Shown here: in pieces, positions 3,215-60,479 of the stretch
How positions within the stretch are numbered: position 1 is the stretch's first letter
Layout of the letters: each line of letters opens with the position of its first letter
NCBI GenBank assembly: GCA_035541435.1
Contig: DATKNL010000012.1
Span: 70,498 to 134,497, forward strand
DNA from: Minisyncoccota bacterium
Lineage (GTDB): Bacteria > Patescibacteriota > Minisyncoccia > UBA6257 > 2-01-FULL-56-20
Reading direction: 5' to 3'
DNA: 64,000 nucleotides
Made by a program: the position numbers and the translations under genes
Notes under the pieces: generated by a model
Told to the model about the DNA's origin: nothing
The model's database searches: none
Seen by the model: only the letters and a program-made list of their open reading frames with translations

Positions 3215-3796
3215 TTAAAAACGGGCTTTGGCCGCCCCTTGGCGCAGCACGGTGACGGCGCCATCCCGCAGGGCGATCAGCGTCGACGGCGGAGCGTCAC
3301 GGCGGCCGGCATCGACATAGAAATCGACGCGGTCGCCGAAATAGCGCTTCGCCTCGCTTAGGGTCTTGGCGGGCGGTTTTCCTTCGAGGTTCGCACTCGG
3401 CGCGACAAGCGGCCCCGCCTTCGCAAGCAGCGACCGCAGCCACGCAGCCTTCGGCATGCGGAAGGCCAGCGTCTTCGTCCCCCGGTGAAGGTAGGCGAAG
3501 CGGCTTCGCGCCGGCAGGGGCGCTATCACACTTATGGGCCCAGGCCAAGATTTCTTTAATATTTTTTTCATGAATGCGTCGGGACGGATGCCGAACAGCC
3601 CGAGGTCGCGCACGGACCCTACCAGGATGATCATCGGCTTCTTCGGGTTTCGCCGCCGCACCCGATAGATCCGCAGCACCGCCGTGCGGTCGAGCGCCGA
3701 TCCGACGATGCCATAGAGCGTGTCGGTCGGGAGCACGCCGATGGCGCCGTTTTGCAGCATCGGAGCGATAAAATGATTGATTTTCCTGATGTTCAT
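3215..3796 (-). CDS. tsaC: L-threonylcarbamoyladenylate synthase (YrdC/TsaC/Sua5 family)
   Basis: 193 aa; YrdC signature GVLPTDTLYGIVGSA and SANLEGKPP motif. Confidence 0.8.
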   Translation of the reverse strand: MNIRKINHFIAPMLQNGAIGVLPTDTLYGIVGSALDRTAVLRIYRVRRRNPKKPMIILVGSVRDLGLFGIRPDAFMKKILKKSWPGPISVIAPLPARSRFAYLHRGTKTLAFRMPKAAWLRSLLAKAGPLVAPSANLEGKPPAKTLSEAKRYFGDRVDFYVDAGRRDAPPSTLIALRDGAVTVLRQGAAKARF

Positions 3797-9639: not shown

Positions 9640-11424
9640 CTACCGCGCGAATGCCCGGGCGCCCTCAAGCACCTCCCCTTCCCCGTTGCCGCTCTGCTCG
9701 CGCCACAGCGCCGAATAGAGCCCGTCGGGATTCCGCAGCAGCTCGGCGTGCGCGCCGCGCTCGATGATCGATCCCTTCTGCAGCACGAAGATCGTATCGG
9801 CGTGCGCGATCGTCGAGAGCCGGTGCGCGATCATGACCGTGATGAGGTCGGGGCGCGACCGGGCGATCTCCTTGATCGTGTCGGTGATGGACCGCTCGGT
9901 GATCGAGTCGAGGCTCGAGGTCGCCTCGTCGAAGATGATGAGGTCGGGCCTGCGCAGGAGCGCCCGCGCGATCGCGAGGCGCTGGCGCTCGCCGCCCGAG
10001 ATCTTGATGCCGCCCTCGCCGATCTTCGTGTCGAGCCCCTTGCCGCCGCGCTCGGCGATGCCCACGACCGAGGCGTTCCGGAGCGCCTCCCAGCAGTCCT
10101 CGTCGGTCGCCGCAGGGTTGACGAACAGCAGGTTCTCGCGGAGCGTCCCCGCGAACAGCTGGGTCTCCTGCGAGACATAGCCGATCGTGCCGCGCAGGGC
10201 GTCGAAGTCGATGCGGCGGCTGTCGGTCCCGTTGATCGTGATGGACCCGCCCGTCGGATGATAGAGGCCCACGAGCAGCTTCACGAGCGTCGTCTTGCCC
10301 GATCCTGAATAGCCGGCAAACGCGACCGTCTCACCGCTCCGGATGGTGAACGAGGCGCCGTTCACCGCGGGGGCGTTGTTGCCGTCATAGCCGAACGAGA
10401 CGTTCTCGAACTCGATGGCCTTCAGGCTTCCGAGCCTCACCGCATCGGCCGGCTTCTCTTCGGGCGCGATATTCAGGATCTCCTCAAGCTTCTCAAGGCT
10501 GCCGCGCGCCTCCTGATATTGCGCCGCCACCGTACCGATGTCGCCGAGCGGCGAGAAGATATAGAAGGAATAGAACCAGAGGCTCAGGAACTCGCCGAGC
10601 GAGACGCGCCCGAGCACGATGAGCCAAAGCATGGCGAACAGGATCGCCGAGCGCATCGCGTTCACGATCGTCCCCTGCGTGAAGCTCAGCTTGCGGATCA
10701 GCTTGAGCTTCGAAAGCTCGAGGCCGAGCACCTTCGTGTTCACCTCGTTGAGCCGCTTCGTCTCCTGCTCCTCGAGGCCGAGGCTCTTCACGAGCTCGAC
10801 GTTCCTGATCGTCTCGGTCGTCGATCCGGCAAGGTTCGCCGATTCGACCACGATGTTCTTCTGCACCGCCTTGATGCGGCGTCCCAAAAAGAACATGGTC
10901 GTTCCGACGATCGGAATGATGAGGAAATAAAGGAGGCCGATAAGCCAATGCACGAAGAACGCATAGACGAGCACGAACAGGATGCCGACGCACGAGACGA
11001 ACACGATGTCGACGAAGCTCAGGATGAGCTGCTGCGCGTCGAGGCGCGCCTTCTGGAGCTTCTGCAGCAGCTCGCCGGACCGCTGGTCCTCGAACACCGA
11101 ATACGGAAGCGAAAAGGAGTGCGACACGCTGTGGGCATAGAGCTCGGTGCCGACGCGCTGGGTCACGACGTTCTCATAATATTGCTGGAAGTTCTTGGCG
11201 ATGCGCGAAACGAGCGCCGCGCCCACCGAAGCGAGCAGCAGGATCCCCACCCCGCGCAGGAAGTCGGCATGCGAAATCGACCCGACCTTCGAGACGTAAT
11301 CGTCAATGATGAGGCGGAAGATCTGAGGATCGAGCAGCGAAAACAGCTGGTTCACCGAAGCGAGGACCAGCGTCAGGCCAAGATATTTCTTATAGCGTCT
11401 TAGATAGTTCCACAATAATTGCAT
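9640..11424 (-). CDS. ABC transporter permease/ATP-binding fusion protein (MsbA-like exporter)
   Basis: 594 aa; six N-terminal TM helices then NBD with GYSGSGKTT Walker A, ISGGERQRLAIARAL signature, IIFDEATSSLD Walker B. Confidence 0.8.
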   Translation of the reverse strand: MQLLWNYLRRYKKYLGLTLVLASVNQLFSLLDPQIFRLIIDDYVSKVGSISHADFLRGVGILLLASVGAALVSRIAKNFQQYYENVVTQRVGTELYAHSVSHSFSLPYSVFEDQRSGELLQKLQKARLDAQQLILSFVDIVFVSCVGILFVLVYAFFVHWLIGLLYFLIIPIVGTTMFFLGRRIKAVQKNIVVESANLAGSTTETIRNVELVKSLGLEEQETKRLNEVNTKVLGLELSKLKLIRKLSFTQGTIVNAMRSAILFAMLWLIVLGRVSLGEFLSLWFYSFYIFSPLGDIGTVAAQYQEARGSLEKLEEILNIAPEEKPADAVRLGSLKAIEFENVSFGYDGNNAPAVNGASFTIRSGETVAFAGYSGSGKTTLVKLLVGLYHPTGGSITINGTDSRRIDFDALRGTIGYVSQETQLFAGTLRENLLFVNPAATDEDCWEALRNASVVGIAERGGKGLDTKIGEGGIKISGGERQRLAIARALLRRPDLIIFDEATSSLDSITERSITDTIKEIARSRPDLITVMIAHRLSTIAHADTIFVLQKGSIIERGAHAELLRNPDGLYSALWREQSGNGEGEVLEGARAFAR

Positions 11425-53882: not shown

Positions 53883-54194
53883 CTACTGCTCGCTTTCCGA
53901 AGCGGCAGGATGATCGCGACGCTCGCCGCGGGTCGAGCCTTCGGGTTCCTCGATCTTAAGGTTGACGCGGGCGTTGTTCTTGACGCCGACGATCCGCAAA
54001 AGCGACCGGATGGCCTTCGCAGTCGCGCCCTGACGGCCGACCACCTGGCCCATGTCCATCGGATTCACGTGAAGCGAGAGCAGGACCCCCATTTCGTCGA
54101 CCTTGCGGTCGACCTTCACGTCCTCTGGATGGTCGACGAGCGACTTTACCAGGTATTCAAGGAACTCCTGATCGGCTGAAGAAGAATTCGACAT
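53883..54194 (-). CDS. KH-domain RNA-binding protein (KhpA/YlqC-like)
   Basis: 103 aa; KH motif MGQVVGRQGATAKAIRSLL; conserved position next to rpsP. Confidence 0.7.
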   Translation of the reverse strand: MSNSSSADQEFLEYLVKSLVDHPEDVKVDRKVDEMGVLLSLHVNPMDMGQVVGRQGATAKAIRSLLRIVGVKNNARVNLKIEEPEGSTRGERRDHPAASESEQ

Positions 54195-54300
54195 GGAATT
54201 TCGGTGTTTCGAGCGACCTTTCCAATCTTCTGGATGGTAAGGAAATTATATCTTATTTAATTAAAACTGTCAACGTTTTCTGCGCTGTTCCCTTCACTAT

Positions 54301-54681
54301 CTACGCTTCAGGACCCGCTTCGGTTGCATCTGCGGCTGCATCCGCCGGAACCGCTTTCTCGTCGGCCGTCGCCGCCGCTTCGGCCGAAGCCTCTGCCGCG
54401 GGGGCTGCCGGGGCGGCTTTTGGCATCTTGACCGCCTTCTTCGGAGCTGAAACGATCCCCTGGGCAACGAGCAGGTTGTGCACCGAAACCGTCGGCTGGG
54501 CGCCAACGTTCATCCAATAGAGGATCCGCTCCTTATTGACGGCGGCGGCCTTCGTGAAGGGATTGTACGAACCAAGGTCCTCCACGGGCGGCGCAGCCAT
54601 TTTGGAGCGGCGTTCGGCAACCACGAACCGATAGCTCGGCTGGTGCTTCTTCCCGATGCGCTGCAATTTGATAGCCAACAT
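54301..54681 (-). CDS. rpsP: 30S ribosomal protein S16 with Ala-rich C-terminal extension
   Basis: 126 aa; MLAIKLQRIGKKHQPSYRFVVAE N-terminus is diagnostic. Confidence 0.9.
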   Translation of the reverse strand: MLAIKLQRIGKKHQPSYRFVVAERRSKMAAPPVEDLGSYNPFTKAAAVNKERILYWMNVGAQPTVSVHNLLVAQGIVSAPKKAVKMPKAAPAAPAAEASAEAAATADEKAVPADAAADATEAGPEA

Positions 54682-54688
54682 GCCTAAC

Positions 54689-54718
54689 AGTATACGCGAA
54701 CCATGGCCGTTTCGTCAA
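54689..54718 (-). promoter_or_regulatory. Promoter TTGACG-N18-TATACT ending 7 nt before rpsP ATG (leaderless)
   Basis: Reverse complement reads ttgacgaaacggccatggttcgcgtatact gttaggca ATG. Confidence 0.45.
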
Positions 54719-54732
54719 CCCTCGTTTCGTGA

Positions 54733-54771
54733 TTCTTTAATGAAAATTCCGGCGCGTAAACGCCGGAATTT
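54733..54771 (-). terminator. Rho-independent terminator (11-bp stem AAATTCCGGCG) after membrane protein gene
   Basis: aaattccggcgcgtaaacgccggaattt read directly; T-rich tract follows on minus strand. Confidence 0.5.
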
Positions 54772-54801
54772 CCGCTGCGATCCGGGGACCGAAACGCCGC
54801 G

Positions 54802-55485
54802 TCAGCGGTTTTCGGTATGCTCCCGAAGGCGCCCGATCAGATGGGACGCATAGTCCCGTCCGCCGAGCCCGAACGCCAGGCCTCCCGCGAGGGCGAGCAT
54901 GGCGATGAATCCCGTCACCAAGGTCTGGATGATCTCGGCGGCGATATTGAGCTGCTGGAGCGCCGCGAGCAGTCCGAAGATGACGACGGCCCACCACGTG
55001 AGCGATCCGAGGAAGCGGGCCGCATTGAGGCGCGCGCTCATGACCGAGGCCACAACGACCCTGCGCAGGAAGTTGCCGAGCACGACCGCGGCGAGCATGA
55101 TAAGCACCGCGGCGATCACGTTCGGAAGGTAATTGAGGACGTTCGTCAGGAAGACCGAAAGCGCGTAGAGGCCGACCGTCTGCACGACGGCAAGCAGGAA
55201 CGCGATGACGACGAACCAATAGACGAGCCTGCCCAGGAAATACGACGCGCGGAGCCTGATGCCGGCCCGCTCGAAGATCGGCTTCAGGCCGAGCTTCTCG
55301 AGGAACCCGTCAAGCCGGAGCCCGTCGAAGATCTTCTCGACGAGGGCGCCGAGTCCCGCGGCCACCACGAGGCCGATGATGAGGACGAAGATTGCGCCGA
55401 TCAGGTTCGGAACGAAGTTCACGAAGCCGACCCACAGGTTCTGAAGCGATCCCACGATCACATCCGTCCAATTCTGCACAATCAT
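54802..55485 (-). CDS. Integral membrane protein (MscS-like TM-helix repeats, no soluble domain)
   Basis: 227 aa, at least four TM helices; weak resemblance to conserved TM helix repeats of mechanosensitive channel family. Confidence 0.5.
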   Translation of the reverse strand: MIVQNWTDVIVGSLQNLWVGFVNFVPNLIGAIFVLIIGLVVAAGLGALVEKIFDGLRLDGFLEKLGLKPIFERAGIRLRASYFLGRLVYWFVVIAFLLAVVQTVGLYALSVFLTNVLNYLPNVIAAVLIMLAAVVLGNFLRRVVVASVMSARLNAARFLGSLTWWAVVIFGLLAALQQLNIAAEIIQTLVTGFIAMLALAGGLAFGLGGRDYASHLIGRLREHTENR

Positions 55486-55544
55486 GTTGTTGTTAAAGGT
55501 AAAATCCGCTGCTTCGACCTTTTATTACATTATAGCAAACAGCC

Positions 55545-55574
55545 TTGCCGTCCCCTGCGGGTCGCTGGTATAGT
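55545..55574 (+). promoter_or_regulatory. Promoter TTGCCG-N18-TATAGT upstream of the membrane-anchored wHTH-like gene
   Basis: Read directly; AAGGAGG SD 6 nt before GTG. Confidence 0.4.
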
Positions 55575-55604
55575 GCAAATAGGACGTTTACAAGGAGGTT
55601 TCAC

Positions 55605-55919
55605 GTGTTCGCTACCCTGTTCTGGACGTTCATTGCCATATTGTCCGTCGTCATGCTCTTCGCCGGGCTCTCTTATAAGAACCAGCAGGCACAGCGCAAG
55701 ATCCTGAAGACGCTGCGCGACTCGGCCGACGAAGGCGAGTGGCTTACGGCAACGGACATCAGCGCCAAAACCAGTCTCGAACCCACCTTTGTTTTTGGGG
55801 TTTTATCCGACCTCGAAAACAAGGGCGAGATCCGAGGAGAGGAATCCGTACCGATACCGGATCGCCGCTTCACCATCAGGAAATTTCCGCTCAGAGCCTC
55901 CCGCTCCTGTGCTTCATAA
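55605..55919 (+). CDS. Small membrane-anchored protein with winged-helix-like C-terminal domain (GTG start)
   Basis: VFATLFWTFIAILSVVMLFAGL TM then LKTLRDSADEGEWLTATDISAKTSLEPTFVFGVLSDLENKGEI; strong SD AAGGAGG. Confidence 0.5.
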   Translation: MFATLFWTFIAILSVVMLFAGLSYKNQQAQRKILKTLRDSADEGEWLTATDISAKTSLEPTFVFGVLSDLENKGEIRGEESVPIPDRRFTIRKFPLRASRSCAS

Positions 55920-55955
55920 GCGCAGCGCGGGCGGCGGACCCTTCTCTTCTATAAC

Positions 55956-55983
55956 CGCTCGCACCCCGCGCGCGGTTTTTTTC
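55956..55983 (+). terminator. Rho-independent terminator CCGCTCGC-ACCCC-GCGCGCGG + T7
   Basis: Read directly. Confidence 0.55.
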
Positions 55984-56008
55984 GTCATCAAATCGATCGT
56001 GCAACGCA

Positions 56009-56036
56009 TTGACATCTTTCGGCCGTTTTCTAGAGT
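56009..56036 (+). promoter_or_regulatory. Cassette-1 promoter TTGACA-N16-TAGAGT (homologous to cassette-2 promoter)
   Basis: gcattgacatctttcggccgttttctagagt vs gcattgacatccatagtcggttttctagaat. Confidence 0.55.
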
Positions 56037-56058
56037 GAAGGGAGCGTGGAGGATATTT

Positions 56059-56199
56059 ATGGATGCTTGGCTTGCGGAAGTTCTTCAGGAAGCCCACGAA
56101 GAAGTGGAAAAATGGCCTTCGTGGCGTAGAGATCCAGAATTCGCGAATGAGCGAACGCCCGAGCTAAATTCCAGCGAACTGGAACGAGTCGCCAACTAA
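56059..56199 (+). CDS. Micro-ORF 1 (46 aa, acidic): MDAWLAEVLQEAHEEVEKWPSWRRDPEFANERTPELNSSELERVAN
   Basis: GGAGG SD 6 nt upstream, own promoter and terminator; below the ORF-track length cutoff. Confidence 0.4.
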   Translation: MDAWLAEVLQEAHEEVEKWPSWRRDPEFANERTPELNSSELERVAN

Positions 56200-56203
56200 C
56201 CAA

Positions 56204-56245
56204 CCCCTCTGAGGATTGAATCCGCGGAGGGGCTTTTCTTTTTTG
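56204..56245 (+). terminator. Terminator T1 CCCCTCTG...CGCGGAGGGG + CTTTTCTTTTTT (homologous to T2)
   Basis: Read directly. Confidence 0.55.
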
Positions 56246-56390
56246 AAAGCAGCTGAGCCTTGTTAAAAAATCGTCGTGTGGACCATCTAAGCGGATGGAT
56301 CGAACGTGGGAAGCGCTGATATGATTGCTTCTCAAAGCAAACGTTTGTTACGAGTGAAGGATTGCGCTGAGGTAGTCCCGCCGCATGGAA

Positions 56391-56414
56391 AACCCCACCG
56401 TATCAGGTGGGGTT
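56391..56414. terminator. Hairpin AACCCCACC-N6-GGTGGGGTT overlapping stop codon of HTH gene
   Basis: Read directly; weak U-tracts on both strands. Confidence 0.35.
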
Positions 56415-56696
56415 TGTTTTGGGCCGTTTCTTGGTTTCTACGTTTCTTGCGAGGAACCGCTCCGCGGTCTCGGCCGTAAAATCGATCTCGAGAGTCGCGG
56501 AGATTGCCCGGTGGACCTCCTTCGCGTTGAACAGGGTCTTGCCGTTCGGGGCGGTCAGGGGCTTGAGTTCTGCGAGCGGTGGGGGCCACGGCGATTCGCC
56601 GGCGACCCATCTCTGCAGCGTGCGCAGGCAGACGCCGAGCAGTGCCGCCGTCTCCTCGCAGGAATAGAACGCGAGGTCGTCGCCGTATTTCAGCAT
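56403..56696 (-). CDS. Excisionase/AlpA/MerR-type HTH (HTH_17-like) DNA-binding protein
   Basis: 97 aa; YSCEETAALLGVCLRTLQRWVAGE matches excisionase-family HTH. Confidence 0.6.
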   Translation of the reverse strand: MLKYGDDLAFYSCEETAALLGVCLRTLQRWVAGESPWPPPLAELKPLTAPNGKTLFNAKEVHRAISATLEIDFTAETAERFLARNVETKKRPKTNPT

Positions 56697-56766
56697 GGGA
56701 TTCCTTTGGTGGAGGGCTGGCTAGACTATATGGCGCGAAACGATATGTGTCCAGGCTGCGGGTGCA

Positions 56767-56794
56767 TTGACATCCATAGTCGGTTTTCTAGAAT
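56767..56794 (+). promoter_or_regulatory. Cassette-2 promoter TTGACA-N16-TAGAAT; -10 overlaps palindrome TTCTAGAA
   Basis: Read directly. Confidence 0.55.
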
Positions 56795-56816
56795 AAGTAA
56801 AGCATAAGGGGGACAA

Positions 56817-56993
56817 ATGCGAACTACGCTTATCGCGTTTCGAACCATAAAGCGTCTGCCGAAGCCGTCGATGGAAGGCAATTCTGTTTATACGCTTGGC
56901 AAGAAAAAGCCCAGCAGCGAGTTGACGCCTCTCGACGTTCCGCCGGGAATGGACCCGGACGATTTCGCCCTCGATTCATGAGTGCGAGTTAGT
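56817..56993 (+). CDS. Micro-ORF 2 (58 aa, basic): MRTTLIAFRTIKRLPKPSMEGNSVYTLGKKKPSSELTPLDVPAGNGPGRFRPRFMSAS
   Basis: AAGGGGG SD 4 nt upstream; own promoter and terminator; weak SSEL similarity to micro-ORF 1. Confidence 0.35.
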
Positions 56994-57004
56994 GCATTCC
57001 TAAC

Positions 57005-57043
57005 CCTCTGCAGGCAAAATCTGCGGAGGGATTTTCTTTTTTA
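57005..57043 (+). terminator. Terminator T2 CCCTCTGCAG-N7-CTGCGGAGGG + ATTTTCTTTTTT
   Basis: Read directly. Confidence 0.55.
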
Positions 57044-57054
57044 AGCTTCGGTTG

Positions 57055-57090
57055 AAAAAATTCCCTGCATAGAGTTCTATGCAGGGAATG
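57055..57090 (-). terminator. Terminator: 14-bp perfect inverted repeat ATTCCCTGCATAGA / TCTATGCAGGGAAT with U6 on minus strand
   Basis: Read directly; convergent with T2. Confidence 0.55.
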
Positions 57091-57093
57091 GTC

Positions 57094-57834
57094 CTATCGG
57101 GCAAAAACCCAAGGGGTTTTACTGCGGATAGAGTTAAGTTCGCCGAGGAAACAAGCCCCAAGAGATGGCTGCCCCCTCTGATGGTTGAGTACGAGAATCA
57201 CCGACCTGGGCCGCCGATAGATCTTGATTGGGCTCATCCCGACATAAACGTACGATGCGGTGCCCGCGTTGAGCGTGGGCTGTTCGGGGTATTGGAGTCT
57301 CAGGAAGGGCACCACCTCGGCCGGGACCGGCTTCAGGCCGTGCGCCGCCGCGGCTTCGTGGACCGTCTTGCCGTTCGTGTACTCCTTCGTAATGCCGAGC
57401 TCGGCCGGGAAAGCGAGCACGCACTCCGCGCTCATTGGACGGTCGAAGCTGAGCGTCGCGAGCGCATGTCTGGCCCGTCCATAGACGAGGAAGCCTTGAG
57501 CCAGGAGTTCGGCGACGAGCTCCTCGCCGGAGCCGCGCACCTGCGTGCGCACCGTCTTCCAGACCGGAAACGGCGGCCGCTGCGGATCAACCGCCACGGG
57601 GATCCAACACGGCTCTCTGCGGAGGAATTTCTCGAATTCTCCTCCCCAGGCCTCGGCATCGTCTCCCAGCAGGTTGGTCACGAGTTGCTTGAACGCCCCG
57701 TCGAAGCGGCAAAGCGTCTCACCGATCACGCTTTTCATGGTCAGCGCTACCTTTCTGCCGGGGACTACGATCCGTAGCCGCAGCCGCAAAACTCCGATGG
57801 GGGCTTTGTGGCTGCGGCCAGAACCCGCTGGCAA
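57094..57834 (-). CDS. Hypothetical protein (214-246 aa depending on start)
   Basis: Track ORF; driven by consensus promoter at 57898-57926; no family recognised. Confidence 0.5.
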   Translation of the reverse strand: MPAGSGRSHKAPIGVLRLRLRIVVPGRKVALTMKSVIGETLCRFDGAFKQLVTNLLGDDAEAWGGEFEKFLRREPCWIPVAVDPQRPPFPVWKTVRTQVRGSGEELVAELLAQGFLVYGRARHALATLSFDRPMSAECVLAFPAELGITKEYTNGKTVHEAAAAHGLKPVPAEVVPFLRLQYPEQPTLNAGTASYVYVGMSPIKIYRRPRSVILVLNHQRGQPSLGACFLGELNSIRSKTPWVFAR

Positions 57835-57897
57835 CCTAGAGCGCTCGCCTCGAACGACTTATTTGTAGGGAAAATAAACCAACGATGAACTGTGCAA

Positions 57898-57926
57898 ATT
57901 ATATCGCATAACGATATATTTGTCAA
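57898..57926 (-). promoter_or_regulatory. Perfect-consensus sigma70 promoter TTGACA-N17-TATAAT
   Basis: Reverse complement reads ttgacaaatatatcgttatgcgatataat. Confidence 0.55.
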
Positions 57927-58001
57927 ATAACTTTCGGCTGGACGTCGGACTGGCCGCAGTCTGCGCGGTCGTGTTTTGATTTATGGTTCGATTTCCGCCG
58001 G

Positions 58002-58072
58002 TGGACCCAGGGAGAATCGGACTCCCGCCTCCGCAATGCGAATGCGGCGTAATACCACTTTACTATGGGCCC
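58002..58072 (-). tRNA. tRNA-Ala (anticodon CGC), slightly atypical T-loop (C at position 55)
   Basis: Reverse complement: acceptor GGGCCCA/TGGGTCC with G3:U70, D-arm GTAA-AGTGGTA-TTAC, anticodon stem CCGCA/TGCGG loop TTCGCAT, T-arm GGGAG-TCCGATT-CTCCC. Confidence 0.55.
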
Positions 58073-58081
58073 GAGTGAGGC

Positions 58082-58219
58082 AAAAATGAATGGTTCTTAA
58101 CTATTCATTTTTGACGAGCGAGGGCACAGGCGGCGAAGCCGCCGGGGCCCGAAGAACAAACAACACATTATCTTCCACGAGCGAGGGCACAGGCGGCGAA
58201 GCCGCCGGGGCCCGAAGAA
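58082..58219. repeat. AT-rich hairpin (AAAAATGAAT-N11-ATTCATTTTT) followed by two identical 43-bp direct repeats (acgagcgagggcacaggcggcgaagccgccggggcccgaagaa) spaced by 20 bp, each forming a GC hairpin
   Basis: Units at ~58114-58156 and ~58177-58219 are identical base for base. Confidence 0.7.
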
Positions 58220-58256
58220 ACAATAGCACCCAACCGGCGCTCTTTCAACATCAGAA

Positions 58257-60479
58257 TCACGCGGCCGGCGTCGCCGTCGCTGCCGCCTCTTCGGCCGTCT
58301 CGAGCTTCAGCGAGACGACCTTCGAGCTGCCGTCCTCGGCGAGCGTGATGCCATACAGCACCTCGGCCGCCTCCATGGTCGCGCGGTTGTGCGTGACGAC
58401 GATGAACTGCGTGCGCTTCGAGAACTCGTGCAGCATCTCGCCGAACCGGCGCGCGTTGCGCTCGTCGAGCGGCGCGTCGATCTCGTCGAGCACAAGGAAC
58501 GGCGGCGGGCTCACCGAGACCATGGCGAAGAGCGCCGCGATGCCGACGAGGCTGCGCTCCCCTCCCGAGAGCACGTCGAGCGACGTCGTCTTCTTGCGCG
58601 GAAGCTTCACCTCGATCTCGACGCCGCCCTCCTTCTCGGGCGGGATCGGCACGAGGTTCTCCTCGTCATTGCCGCCCGCCTCGCCGGTACCGCCGTCCTC
58701 ATCGTCATCGCCGCCGCGGACCGGCTCCTTCGGACGCAGCACCTTGAGGCGCGCCGTGCCGCCGCCGAACATGAGGCCGAAGAACTTATCGAATTCCGCG
58801 TTGATCTTCACGAGGGATTTTTCGAACTCGGACTTGATCTTCTCGGAAAGGTCGATCATGAGCGTCGTGAGGTCGTTCACCGCCTTCGTGAGGTCCTCGG
58901 ATTCCTTCTGCAGGAACTCGTAGCGCTTCTCGGTCTCCTGCGCCTCGCGCATGAGGGCCTCGTCGACTTCGCCGATGCTCGCCAGGTCCCCGCGCAGCCT
59001 GAAGATGCGACGCTCCATCTCGTTGAAATCGGTCCCCTGAGCCGCCGGAGGCGTGTCGCGGAACTCGTCGGCGCGGCGGCCGGCCTGCTCGATCTGATGC
59101 AGGACCTCCTCGCGGCGCAGGTCGATGCGCTCCTTCTGGAGCAGGAGCTCGCGGTTCCCCTTCTCCCATTCGTCGATGCGTCCCTGCGCGTTCTGAACCG
59201 CGGCCACCGCCCCTTTGAACGTGTCATAAAATTCCTCCTGGCCCGTTTCGAGCGCCTGTTCGCGCGAGCGGAGCTCGGCGATCGCCGCCTCAAGCCGCTT
59301 CAGGTCCTCGGCCGTCTTCTCGAGGTCGCGCCGCAGCTCGTCGGGGACGGCCGCCGGACGCTCCTCGCGCTCCTCAAGCGCGAAGCCGATCTCCTCAAGC
59401 ACCGTCTCGATGGCCGCCTGGATGCCGAGCGGCTCCTCGTTCAGGGCCTCCTCGAGCTCGGCTTTGATCTTCTGCAGCACATCGATGAGGTGCTCGACGG
59501 ACCGGTCGCCGCGCGGGCCGCCGGACTTCCGCGCGATCTCGATCTGCGCCTCGATGCGGCCAAGGTCCTTCTGCAGGTCGCTGCGCGACTCCATGAGCTT
59601 GCGGATCTCGTCCTTCACGAGCTGGAGCGCCTTCCGCTCCTCGGGCTGGCTCGCCTCGATCGCGGCCTGCCTCATCTCGGCCGCCTTCTTCTCCTTTTCG
59701 AGATGTTCGAATTCCCGGCGGTGGTCCGCAAGAGCGGCCTCGACCACCGCACCCTTCTCGGCGAGTTCGCGGATGTGCGAGCCGAAAAAGGCACCTTCGA
59801 GCACGCGCAGCTCCTCTTCGAGCGCGCCGCGCCGCTCCCACCGGCCGGTCTGCCGCTTGAGCGACCGAAGATGCGGCAGGATCTCCTCGATGAGGGCCGT
59901 CACCTTGTCAAGGTTTATTTTACTGTTTTTTAACCTTCGTTCCGCGTCGGCCTTCTTCAGCTGATATTCGCGAAGACCCAACATCTCTTCGATCATCTCG
60001 CGGCGCTCGGTGGCGGACGATCTGATGAACACATCGCTGTCGCCCTGGCCGATGATGACGAGGCCGTGGCTGCCGAGGCGGGCCTTCGCGAAGAAGTCGA
60101 CGAGGTCGCGCAGCAGGATCTCGGAACGGTTCAGGAAGTATTTGCTCTGGCCGTCGCGACGGATCTCGCGCGAAACCACGACCTCCTCGAAGTCGATCGG
60201 GAAGAACTTGTTCTTGTTCTCAAAGACGAGGCTCGCGCTCGCCATGCCGACGCGCGGGCGCTTCACGGTCCCCGCAAAGATGAGGTCGTCGATCTTCGCG
60301 CCGCGCAGGTTCTTGGCGTCGCGCTCGCCGAGCAGCCACCGCAGGGCGTCGACGATGTTCGACTTGCCGCTGCCGTTCGGGCCGACGATGGCCACGATGC
60401 CCGCGGGGAACTCGAGCACGGTCCGGCCGGCGAACGATTTGAACCCGTTGAGCTCGAGCCGGCGAAGGAAGTGAGGCAT
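58257..60479 (-). CDS. smc: SMC-like chromosome segregation ATPase, short (740 aa) with no recognisable hinge domain
   Basis: N-terminal LELNGFKSFAGRTVLEF..GPNGSGKSNIVDAL, long coiled coil, C-terminal LSGGERSLVGIAALFA...LVLDEIDAPLD. Confidence 0.75.
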   Translation of the reverse strand: MPHFLRRLELNGFKSFAGRTVLEFPAGIVAIVGPNGSGKSNIVDALRWLLGERDAKNLRGAKIDDLIFAGTVKRPRVGMASASLVFENKNKFFPIDFEEVVVSREIRRDGQSKYFLNRSEILLRDLVDFFAKARLGSHGLVIIGQGDSDVFIRSSATERREMIEEMLGLREYQLKKADAERRLKNSKINLDKVTALIEEILPHLRSLKRQTGRWERRGALEEELRVLEGAFFGSHIRELAEKGAVVEAALADHRREFEHLEKEKKAAEMRQAAIEASQPEERKALQLVKDEIRKLMESRSDLQKDLGRIEAQIEIARKSGGPRGDRSVEHLIDVLQKIKAELEEALNEEPLGIQAAIETVLEEIGFALEEREERPAAVPDELRRDLEKTAEDLKRLEAAIAELRSREQALETGQEEFYDTFKGAVAAVQNAQGRIDEWEKGNRELLLQKERIDLRREEVLHQIEQAGRRADEFRDTPPAAQGTDFNEMERRIFRLRGDLASIGEVDEALMREAQETEKRYEFLQKESEDLTKAVNDLTTLMIDLSEKIKSEFEKSLVKINAEFDKFFGLMFGGGTARLKVLRPKEPVRGGDDDEDGGTGEAGGNDEENLVPIPPEKEGGVEIEVKLPRKKTTSLDVLSGGERSLVGIAALFAMVSVSPPPFLVLDEIDAPLDERNARRFGEMLHEFSKRTQFIVVTHNRATMEAAEVLYGITLAEDGSSKVVSLKLETAEEAAATATPAA

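Follow-up and report, generated by a model that had tools for sequence, protein, structure and literature searches.

Because the genomes of bacteria of the candidate phyla radiation (CPR) are tiny, the location of their variable, lineage-specific genes is worth knowing. The question is raised here by a group of small genes beside tRNA-Ala(CGC) in a metagenome-assembled genome (MAG) of Candidatus Paceibacterota, a member of the CPR. The window, i.e. the whole stretch of DNA that was analysed, comprises 64 kb of contig DATKNL010000012.1 (assembly GCA_035541435.1); its genes carry the locus tags VMT99_039xx, and positions are those of the window unless stated differently. The tRNA-Ala(CGC) gene was located at 58000-58072 on the minus strand with ARAGORN and Rfam, so that its 3′ end faces the DNA in question, the first base of which is 57999. 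Between this tRNA gene and MS227, a conserved MscS-type membrane protein gene (54802-55485, domain MS_channel_1st_1), five genes are found, each with a promoter-like site and a hairpin terminator of its own. An initial annotation of positions 55920-58001 had described a low-GC islet abutting the tRNA 3′ end, with a decayed integrative element, a toxin/antidote pair or a pair of small regulatory RNAs as candidate functions. What kind of element is this, and how did it come to lie beside the tRNA? The answer reached here is that positions 55545-57999 probably represent a strain-specific accessory islet, composed of five moron-like modules and situated at a lineage-wide, hypervariable tRNA-Ala(CGC) hot spot.

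For the comparison with relatives, 54 related loci were obtained from a scan anchored on the SMC gene, and 16 of these were analysed for the layout of the site. The tRNA-Ala(CGC) gene is located between the SMC and MS227 genes in 16 of the 16 analysed relatives, and the proteins of the islet are encoded in none of the 54 loci. The site measures only 300-530 bp in six relatives (L005, L006, L052, L013, L014 and L016), which include the three closest ones by SMC identity (L005, L052 and L006; 79-82%), and this answers the question of presence or absence at this tRNA that the initial annotation had posed. In the remaining relatives the site is filled with unrelated DNA of 0.8-6 kb, consisting largely of unannotated open reading frames (ORFs) and located for the most part 3′ of the tRNA. 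Ten of the hot-spot ORFs of relatives were tested; nine had no Pfam match, none was a recombinase, and no recognisable mobility gene was present. Upstream of MS227 the homology of the relatives stops at the conserved GTTTGCTATAAT at ~55541, and the real insert therefore extends over 55545-57999 (2.45 kb), with its left edge at ~55545 rather than at 55920. The gene of the membrane-anchored winged-helix protein, which had been placed at the boundary, consequently lies inside the insert. The locus is an accessory islet at a recombination hot spot.

The tRNA itself differs among the relatives. Its orientation with respect to the conserved neighbours (L005-L054) is that of the window in 6 relatives and inverted in 10, which suggests repeated inversion or recombination at the locus. 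In L005 (10474-10621) and L006 (10528-10676), the final 48 nt of the tRNA are repeated 28 nt beyond its end, without any mismatch in L006; this copy is an att-like scar, the kind of repeat that integration at a tRNA leaves. L005 additionally carries tRNA 5′-like fragments upstream of the tRNA (GGGCTCATAT, three times) and an 18-bp inverted repeat, GCTCTCAATTTCGTTTAC / GTAAACGAAATTGAGAGC, on both sides of it. A small protein of ~61-83 aa recurs just after the SMC gene in L010, L011 and L051 (e.g. L011 10283-10501), with the consensus …GGLVGP.NTM…DPDEKLREYL…EEELE.A.RNLK.YLILAGE.A…; it is unrelated to the small ORFs of the window.

The anatomy of the insert is summarized in Table 1. Promoter-like sites are enriched, with 7 observed as compared to 1.1 +/- 1.1 in shuffled sequences, and five of them match the five genes of the islet. 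The composition is less deviant than described, since the stretch of 55920-58001 has a GC content of 56.5% in a window of 62.4%, instead of ~50% in a ~68% genome; values near 50% are confined to the two small-ORF cassettes and the intergenic DNA, and the helix-turn-helix (HTH) gene and ORF214 have 62-63%. The 104-aa protein at the left edge weakly matches the Z-alpha winged-helix domain, RPC34 and Rrf2, and the annotated frame of its gene is the best of six by codon usage. It had no match in the 54 related loci, and no contig was found for P0006, a 90%-identical variant of it.

Table 1. Features of the islet and of the region upstream of the tRNA in the window, and repeats of the compared loci L072, L077 and L079 (positions of those loci)
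Feature	Position	Strand	Remarks
Promoter-like site of the winged-helix gene, TTGCCG-N18-TATAGT with TG	55545-55574	+	left edge of the insert
104-aa protein, N-terminal hydrophobic helix and winged-helix-like domain	55605-55919	+	weak profile matches
GC-rich hairpin and T-run, likely terminator of the 104-aa gene	55955-55982	+	read from the sequence; not reported by a simple terminator scan
Cassette 1 promoter, GCATTGACATC-N8-GTTTTCTAGAGT	56006-56036	+	sigma-70-type
Small ORF 1, 46 aa, pI 4.4	56059-56199	+	GGAGGA 6 nt before ATG
Cassette 1 intrinsic terminator	56204-56246	+	two-part stem, then CTTTTCTTTTTT
Inverted repeat GATCCATC-N6-GATGGTCCAC, then T-run	56278-56301	-	downstream of both HTH copies, beyond the main terminator
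HTH gene terminator, CCCCACC-N6-GGTGGGG and T-run	56385-56410	-	identical in the second copy
HTH gene, 97-aa orphan	56403-56696	-	N-terminal excisionase/MerR-type helix-turn-helix
HTH gene promoter, TGGACA-N17-TATAGT	56725-56753	-	back to back with the cassette 2 promoter; kept in the second copy
Cassette 2 promoter, GCATTGACATC-N8-GTTTTCTAGAAT	56764-56794	+	contains TTCTAGAA
Small ORF 2, 54 aa, pI 8.1, net charge +0.5	56817-56981	+	GGGGGA before ATG
Cassette 2 intrinsic terminator	57004-57043	+	11-bp stem, then ATTTTCTTTTTT
ORF214 terminator, 13-14-bp perfect hairpin and TTTTTT	57060-57089	-	
ORF214	57094-57738	-	predicted three-helix N-terminal bundle and C-type-lectin-like (CLec/FGE-like) domain
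19-bp imperfect hairpin in the ~150-nt ORF214 leader	57777-57818	-	no Rfam match
ORF214 promoter, TTGACA-N17-TATAAT	57898-57926	-	12/12
Two tandem 63-nt units, each with a GC hairpin	58107-58229	.	upstream of the tRNA, outside the islet, part of the tRNA locus
Variable repeat and template repeat, L072	939-1071, 1439-1571		
Variable repeat and template repeat, L077	~1356-1490, ~1835		
Variable repeat and template repeat, L079	~2175-2309, ~2683		

Autonomous units of promoter, gene and terminator are known from temperate phages as morons, a concept of Hendrix and colleagues. The five genes of the islet resemble morons in that they, and the cassettes especially, are self-contained with a predicted sigma-70-type promoter and a terminator, and in that the cassettes are lower in GC than their surroundings. 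Unlike morons, they lie outside any prophage context and without phage genes. The phage connection of their proteins is limited to a weak phage-family match of the HTH protein; no relatives were found in phage records for small ORF 1 or the HTH protein (tblastn), nor for the latter by a scan of viral contigs.

The HTH gene, convergent with cassette 1 and divergent from cassette 2, had been assigned to an excisionase family and described as bracketed by the cassettes. Its position is as described, whereas all of its family scores are below the curated cut-offs (HTH_17, 22.4 bits with a cut-off of 27; TIGR01764, 15.7 bits with a cut-off of 28.8). Residues 9-78 align weakly to phrog_66 ('excisionase and transcriptional regulator', E 9e-4), and Phage_AlpA (PF05930) is not among the Pfam matches at E<=0.1. 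Among 5.8 billion protein clusters, a paralogue encoded by the same MAG is the sole relative, and the module to which this paralogue belongs had been missed by the initial annotation. This second copy is located on another contig (L001, 10001-10294), is 94% identical to the first at the DNA level from promoter to terminator, and starts 30 bp downstream of tRNA-Ala(TGC); its orientation with respect to the tRNA matches that of the first copy, and a convergent DUF5701 gene follows it. Compared to the tRNA-Ala(TGC) locus, the window has an extra 1.24 kb between tRNA and HTH module, consisting of ORF214 and cassette 2, and the homology between the two loci ends 8 bp from the cassette 2 promoter box. 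Of the differences between the two copies, 6 are synonymous and 10 non-synonymous (dN/dS 0.57), and the first 63 residues are almost invariant, which is consistent with a functional DNA-binding protein. The inverted repeat downstream of the gene, GATCCATC-N6-GATGGTCCAC, is also present in L001 at 10322-10345. A perfect 10-bp palindrome, CAAACGTTTG (56331-56354), lies between the terminators of cassette 1 and the HTH gene and is absent at the second HTH locus.

These data bear on the possibility that the islet is the remnant of an integrative element with an attachment site in tRNA-Ala, in which the HTH protein would act as an excisionase/AlpA-like directionality factor and the element would be mobilisable by an integrase encoded elsewhere. 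With tRNA-linked islands that carry an AlpA/Xis regulator the islet shares the position at a tRNA 3′ end, the absence from relatives, a small excisionase-type HTH gene, and the tRNA-fragment scars that relatives carry at this site, including the duplicated tRNA 3′ part in L005 and L006. The presence of two 94%-identical HTH modules downstream of tRNA-Ala genes in the same orientation and the weak matches of the HTH protein, which concern excisionase families and a Xer activation factor, likewise speak for such an origin. We nevertheless regard it as unlikely. Unlike those islands, the islet, with 2.45 kb, has neither an integrase nor a flanking direct repeat: no att-like repeat surrounds the islet or the HTH module, and the best match to the tRNA is 8 nt long. 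An integrase is absent, as had been stated; no islet ORF is integrase-like or long enough to be one, and no recombinase match was obtained for any of them; the largest gene encodes 214 aa with a predicted CLec-like fold. Furthermore, the HTH protein remains under every family cut-off, including an unmatched PF05930, and has no relatives in the phage records or viral contigs, and the contents of the hot spot in the relatives are devoid of recognisable mobility genes. The 7-nt sequence GGTCCAC, shared by the tRNA 3′ end and the motif after the HTH gene, was considered as an att core and not relied on, because chance alone would give several copies of a 7-mer in 64 kb. Hence the earlier reading as a decayed integrative element holds as far as an accessory islet on the tRNA 3′ side is concerned, whereas att-like repeats of the tRNA 3′ end were found as 48-nt copies in L005 and L006 only; with neither an att repeat nor an integrase in the islet, an integrative element is what we infer rather than observe.

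The gene next to the tRNA, ORF214, had been described as a 240-aa orphan with a perfect promoter. The promoter was confirmed in full; the homologues align from the ATG at 57738, which as the start codon gives a protein of 214 aa, and this protein belongs to a family. A word-indexed protein search gave a single marginal match (E 3.9e-3), and a HMMER scan of 1.84 billion cluster representatives gave 196 at E<=1e-3, mostly of ~210 aa and with end-to-end alignment. No Pfam family covers the members. The fold was predicted with AlphaFold from a 40-sequence alignment (pLDDT 90), the prediction from the single sequence being unusable (pLDDT 33). An assembly made from another sequencing run contains an identical ORF214. 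The hairpin in its leader could represent a regulatory leader.

The genomic context was examined for five homologues (L072, L073, L077, L079 and L080). Three of the five (L072, L077 and L079) have a 3′-terminal variable repeat and a template repeat ~500 bp downstream, followed by a bAvd gene on the opposite strand and then a reverse transcriptase gene; L077 has this gene in full (RVT_1), and in L072 and L079 the contig ends within it. The repeats show zero non-adenine mismatches in these three loci, and in L072 16/16 mismatches are at template adenines; these loci are canonical diversity-generating retroelements (DGRs). Among proven DGR targets the best match of ORF214 is P0010 (E 6e-24), whose variable and template repeats differ at 16 positions, all of them adenines in the template repeat. 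ORF214 has the same length as the proven targets and the terminal WVFAR motif in common with them, and its predicted fold would be CLec-like. This homology had escaped the initial annotation. DGR targets in CPR bacteria usually lack recognisable domains (Roux et al. 2021, PMC8144416), and the ORF214 family, which has no Pfam model, fits this description. The DGR of L077 is flanked (123-626 and 3379-3606) by a HigB-like toxin gene, preceded by a small partner gene, and by a gene whose product was judged by eye to be HicB-like.

In contrast to the CPR DGR variable proteins, ORF214 has no template repeat, Avd or reverse transcriptase in the 64 kb, and conserved scaffold residues of the variable region are changed. 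This could be taken as a decayed DGR locus, in which ORF214 would be a former variable protein and the opposite-strand small gene and the gene after it would occupy the places of avd and reverse transcriptase genes that were lost or replaced. The order of features downstream of ORF214, an opposite-strand small gene and then a same-strand gene, indeed corresponds to that in the loci of its closest homologues (target, template repeat, opposite-strand avd, reverse transcriptase). The reading is improbable due to the fact that no template repeat was found in the 64 kb even when adenine mismatches were ignored, with 13 non-adenine mismatches in the best 60-nt window, and that Avd and reverse transcriptase queries had no tblastn match in the window. 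Neither the small ORFs nor the HTH protein match the bAvd or RVT families, and further family members (L073 and L080) also stand alone, among housekeeping genes; the identity of ORF214 between assemblies from different sequencing runs argues in the same direction. A template repeat or reverse transcriptase for ORF214 was not found in L001 either. Either cassette, on either strand, was ruled out as the template repeat of ORF214 by repeat comparison, and ORF214 proved unrelated to the DUF5701 gene of similar size that accompanies the second HTH copy (BLASTP E 2.6, hhalign probability 0.6%).

For the two small-ORF cassettes, the homology of promoters and terminators that had been proposed was borne out. 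The 64 kb contain the promoter box GCATTGACATC-N8-GTTTTCTAGA at two positions only, 56006-56034 and 56764-56792, with 0 occurrences expected by chance, and both promoters score 10-11/12 as sigma-70-type. Two copies of the terminator motif CCCTCTG-N8-ATCNGCGGAGGG with its T-run are present, at 56205-56231 and 57004-57030, as compared to 0.08 expected in 64 kb, and the two terminators are ~70% identical over 44 nt. From -40 to the ATG the cassettes align without gaps, so that the distance from promoter to ATG is the same in both; 36/61 positions are identical, including 21/21 in both conserved boxes, and the mismatches are mostly transitions. Just before each terminator stem a TAA is located within a conserved CTAACC; it is the stop codon of small ORF 1, and small ORF 2 stops 7 codons before this TAA, which is in its frame. 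Between these ends no homology was detected at the DNA or protein level, and the local alignment scores of the interiors are below the shuffle mean.

The acidic 46-aa ORF was confirmed as described. The second one, reported as basic and 58 aa long, has 54 aa and is near neutral; it is called as a gene by public pipelines, and in host codon usage its annotated frame ranks first among the six. The frame of small ORF 1 has no support from codon usage, and no homologue of it was found by a word-indexed protein search. Neither small ORF matches a family in Pfam, NCBIfam or PADLOC, nor any toxin-antitoxin or defence family, and neither has a homologue. The palindrome noted in the conserved promoter box, TTCTAGAA, is perfect in cassette 2 only, with TTCTAGAG in cassette 1, and TCTAGA occurs nowhere else in the window. 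The conserved sequence reaches beyond the hexamers, covering 3 nt before and 2 nt after the -35 and 6 nt before the -10, which may point to a bound factor; the HTH protein, encoded divergently from cassette 2, would be the obvious candidate.

Most simply, the pair of cassettes is an old duplication of which only the functional ends have survived: the -35 and -10 blocks, Shine-Dalgarno sequence and ATG, stop codon and terminator stem. Alternatively, cargo may have been exchanged between conserved regulatory ends, by analogy with the PeSL motifs of T4-type phages. In these phages, the small orphan ORFs of a hypervariable region, unrelated to one another, are flanked by the PeSL cassettes, conserved repeats of a strong promoter and a stem-loop terminator (Arbiol et al. 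2010, PMC2839356; Comeau et al. 2014, PMC4122927). The islet is alike in its repeated promoter and terminator sequences around small unrelated orphan ORFs in a hypervariable region. It differs in that only two copies are present, in that promoter and terminator bracket the ORF instead of forming a composite intergenic motif, in that the genome is a cellular one of the CPR, and in the lack of evidence for recombination or mini-circles. That PeSL-like mobile ends shuffle small orphan genes in a CPR chromosome, and that the ~400-bp HTH module was put beside tRNA-Ala by a recombinase acting in trans, has only a slim chance of being correct; the tRNA orientation flips and tRNA-fragment scars in relatives would fit it. 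When viral and metagenome collections were scanned for exact occurrences of the promoter box (18 specified bases), 2 and 11 matches, respectively, were obtained, all of them in low-GC, unrelated contigs without other similarity, and these were rejected as chance matches. Integron attC sites were likewise rejected as an explanation of the terminator hairpins, as their core-site motifs are absent from the sequence.

That the cassettes are the source of small regulatory RNAs, or of a toxin/antidote pair of small proteins, as had been proposed, is hardly likely: the two units are short (~200-240 nt from promoter to terminator), one ORF is acidic and small ORF 1 lacks codon-usage support and homologues, but both transcripts open with a strong Shine-Dalgarno sequence and an ATG at an equal distance from the promoter, the ORF fills each transcript with an in-frame TAA in the conserved CTAACC before each terminator, folding is no more stable than that of shuffled sequences (z -1.5 and -1.7, terminator included), the tRNA alone passes the Rfam covariance models in 54000-59000 with the remaining matches at chance level, the convergent neighbours have terminators of their own so that no antisense overlap arises, and, unlike type II toxin-antitoxin pairs, the small ORFs are by their layout neither adjacent nor co-transcribed, being separate monocistronic units with starts 758 nt apart and an opposite-strand gene between them, the second one not basic, and with no match to a toxin-antitoxin or defence family.

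The explanation preferred here is therefore that of an accessory islet which would be a mosaic of five autonomous monocistronic units, each with a predicted sigma-70-type promoter and an intrinsic terminator, namely the membrane winged-helix protein, cassette 1, the orphan HTH gene, cassette 2, and ORF214, a relative of DGR-diversified binding proteins without a retroelement at this locus. The cassettes would be paralogous expression modules with a common promoter, promoter-ATG distance, CTAACC stop and terminator, the coding interiors of which have diverged or been replaced beyond recognition. The islet presumably arrived by recombination at the tRNA hot spot and subsequently lost any att or integrase signature. 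The two cassettes may be co-expressed, because the promoter is common to both, and the HTH protein would be the likeliest regulator, given its divergent position relative to cassette 2.

Several findings weigh against this explanation. The GC deviation is modest (56% versus 62%), and the GC content and codon usage of the HTH gene and ORF214 are host-like, so that a recent import is not obvious. The islet is not bordered by a direct repeat of the tRNA 3′ end, the best tRNA match within 55301-57999 being 8 nt, and has no integrase, so that it is at most putatively mobile. Small ORF 1, with neither codon-usage support nor a homologue, may be untranslated. As only two copies of the cassette exist in the collections searched, selection on the ends is inseparable from shared ancestry. 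Finally, nothing links the HTH protein to the TCTAGA box, and none occurs within 20 kb of the second HTH copy, which leaves the idea of a candidate operator without comparative support.

Upstream of the tRNA, the tandem 63-nt units contain the hairpin GGCGGC-N-GCCGCC, and the start of each unit resembles the tRNA 5′ end (GGGCCC). An AT-rich hairpin is located between these units and tRNA-Ala(CGC), directly before the tRNA. One unit and the AT-rich hairpin are ~93% identical upstream of tRNA-Ala(TGC) (L001 ~9761-9838), the ~90 nt upstream of both tRNA-Ala genes being ~93% identical and the tRNA bodies different.

The most informative new facts are the ancestry of ORF214 among DGR targets and the duplication of the HTH module at two tRNA-Ala loci. 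Current views are not overturned by these data, and the islet is a fairly ordinary accessory one. If mobile cassettes and a trans-acting recombinase were indeed involved, tRNA-Ala loci would be engines of gene turnover in reduced genomes. The cassette pair illustrates on a small scale how, in nature, regulatory ends can outlast their cargo, and ORF214 indicates that a DGR-type binding protein can persist without the retroelement. Throughout an entire family of Paceibacterota, one conserved tRNA-Ala serves as a hot spot for orphan genes.

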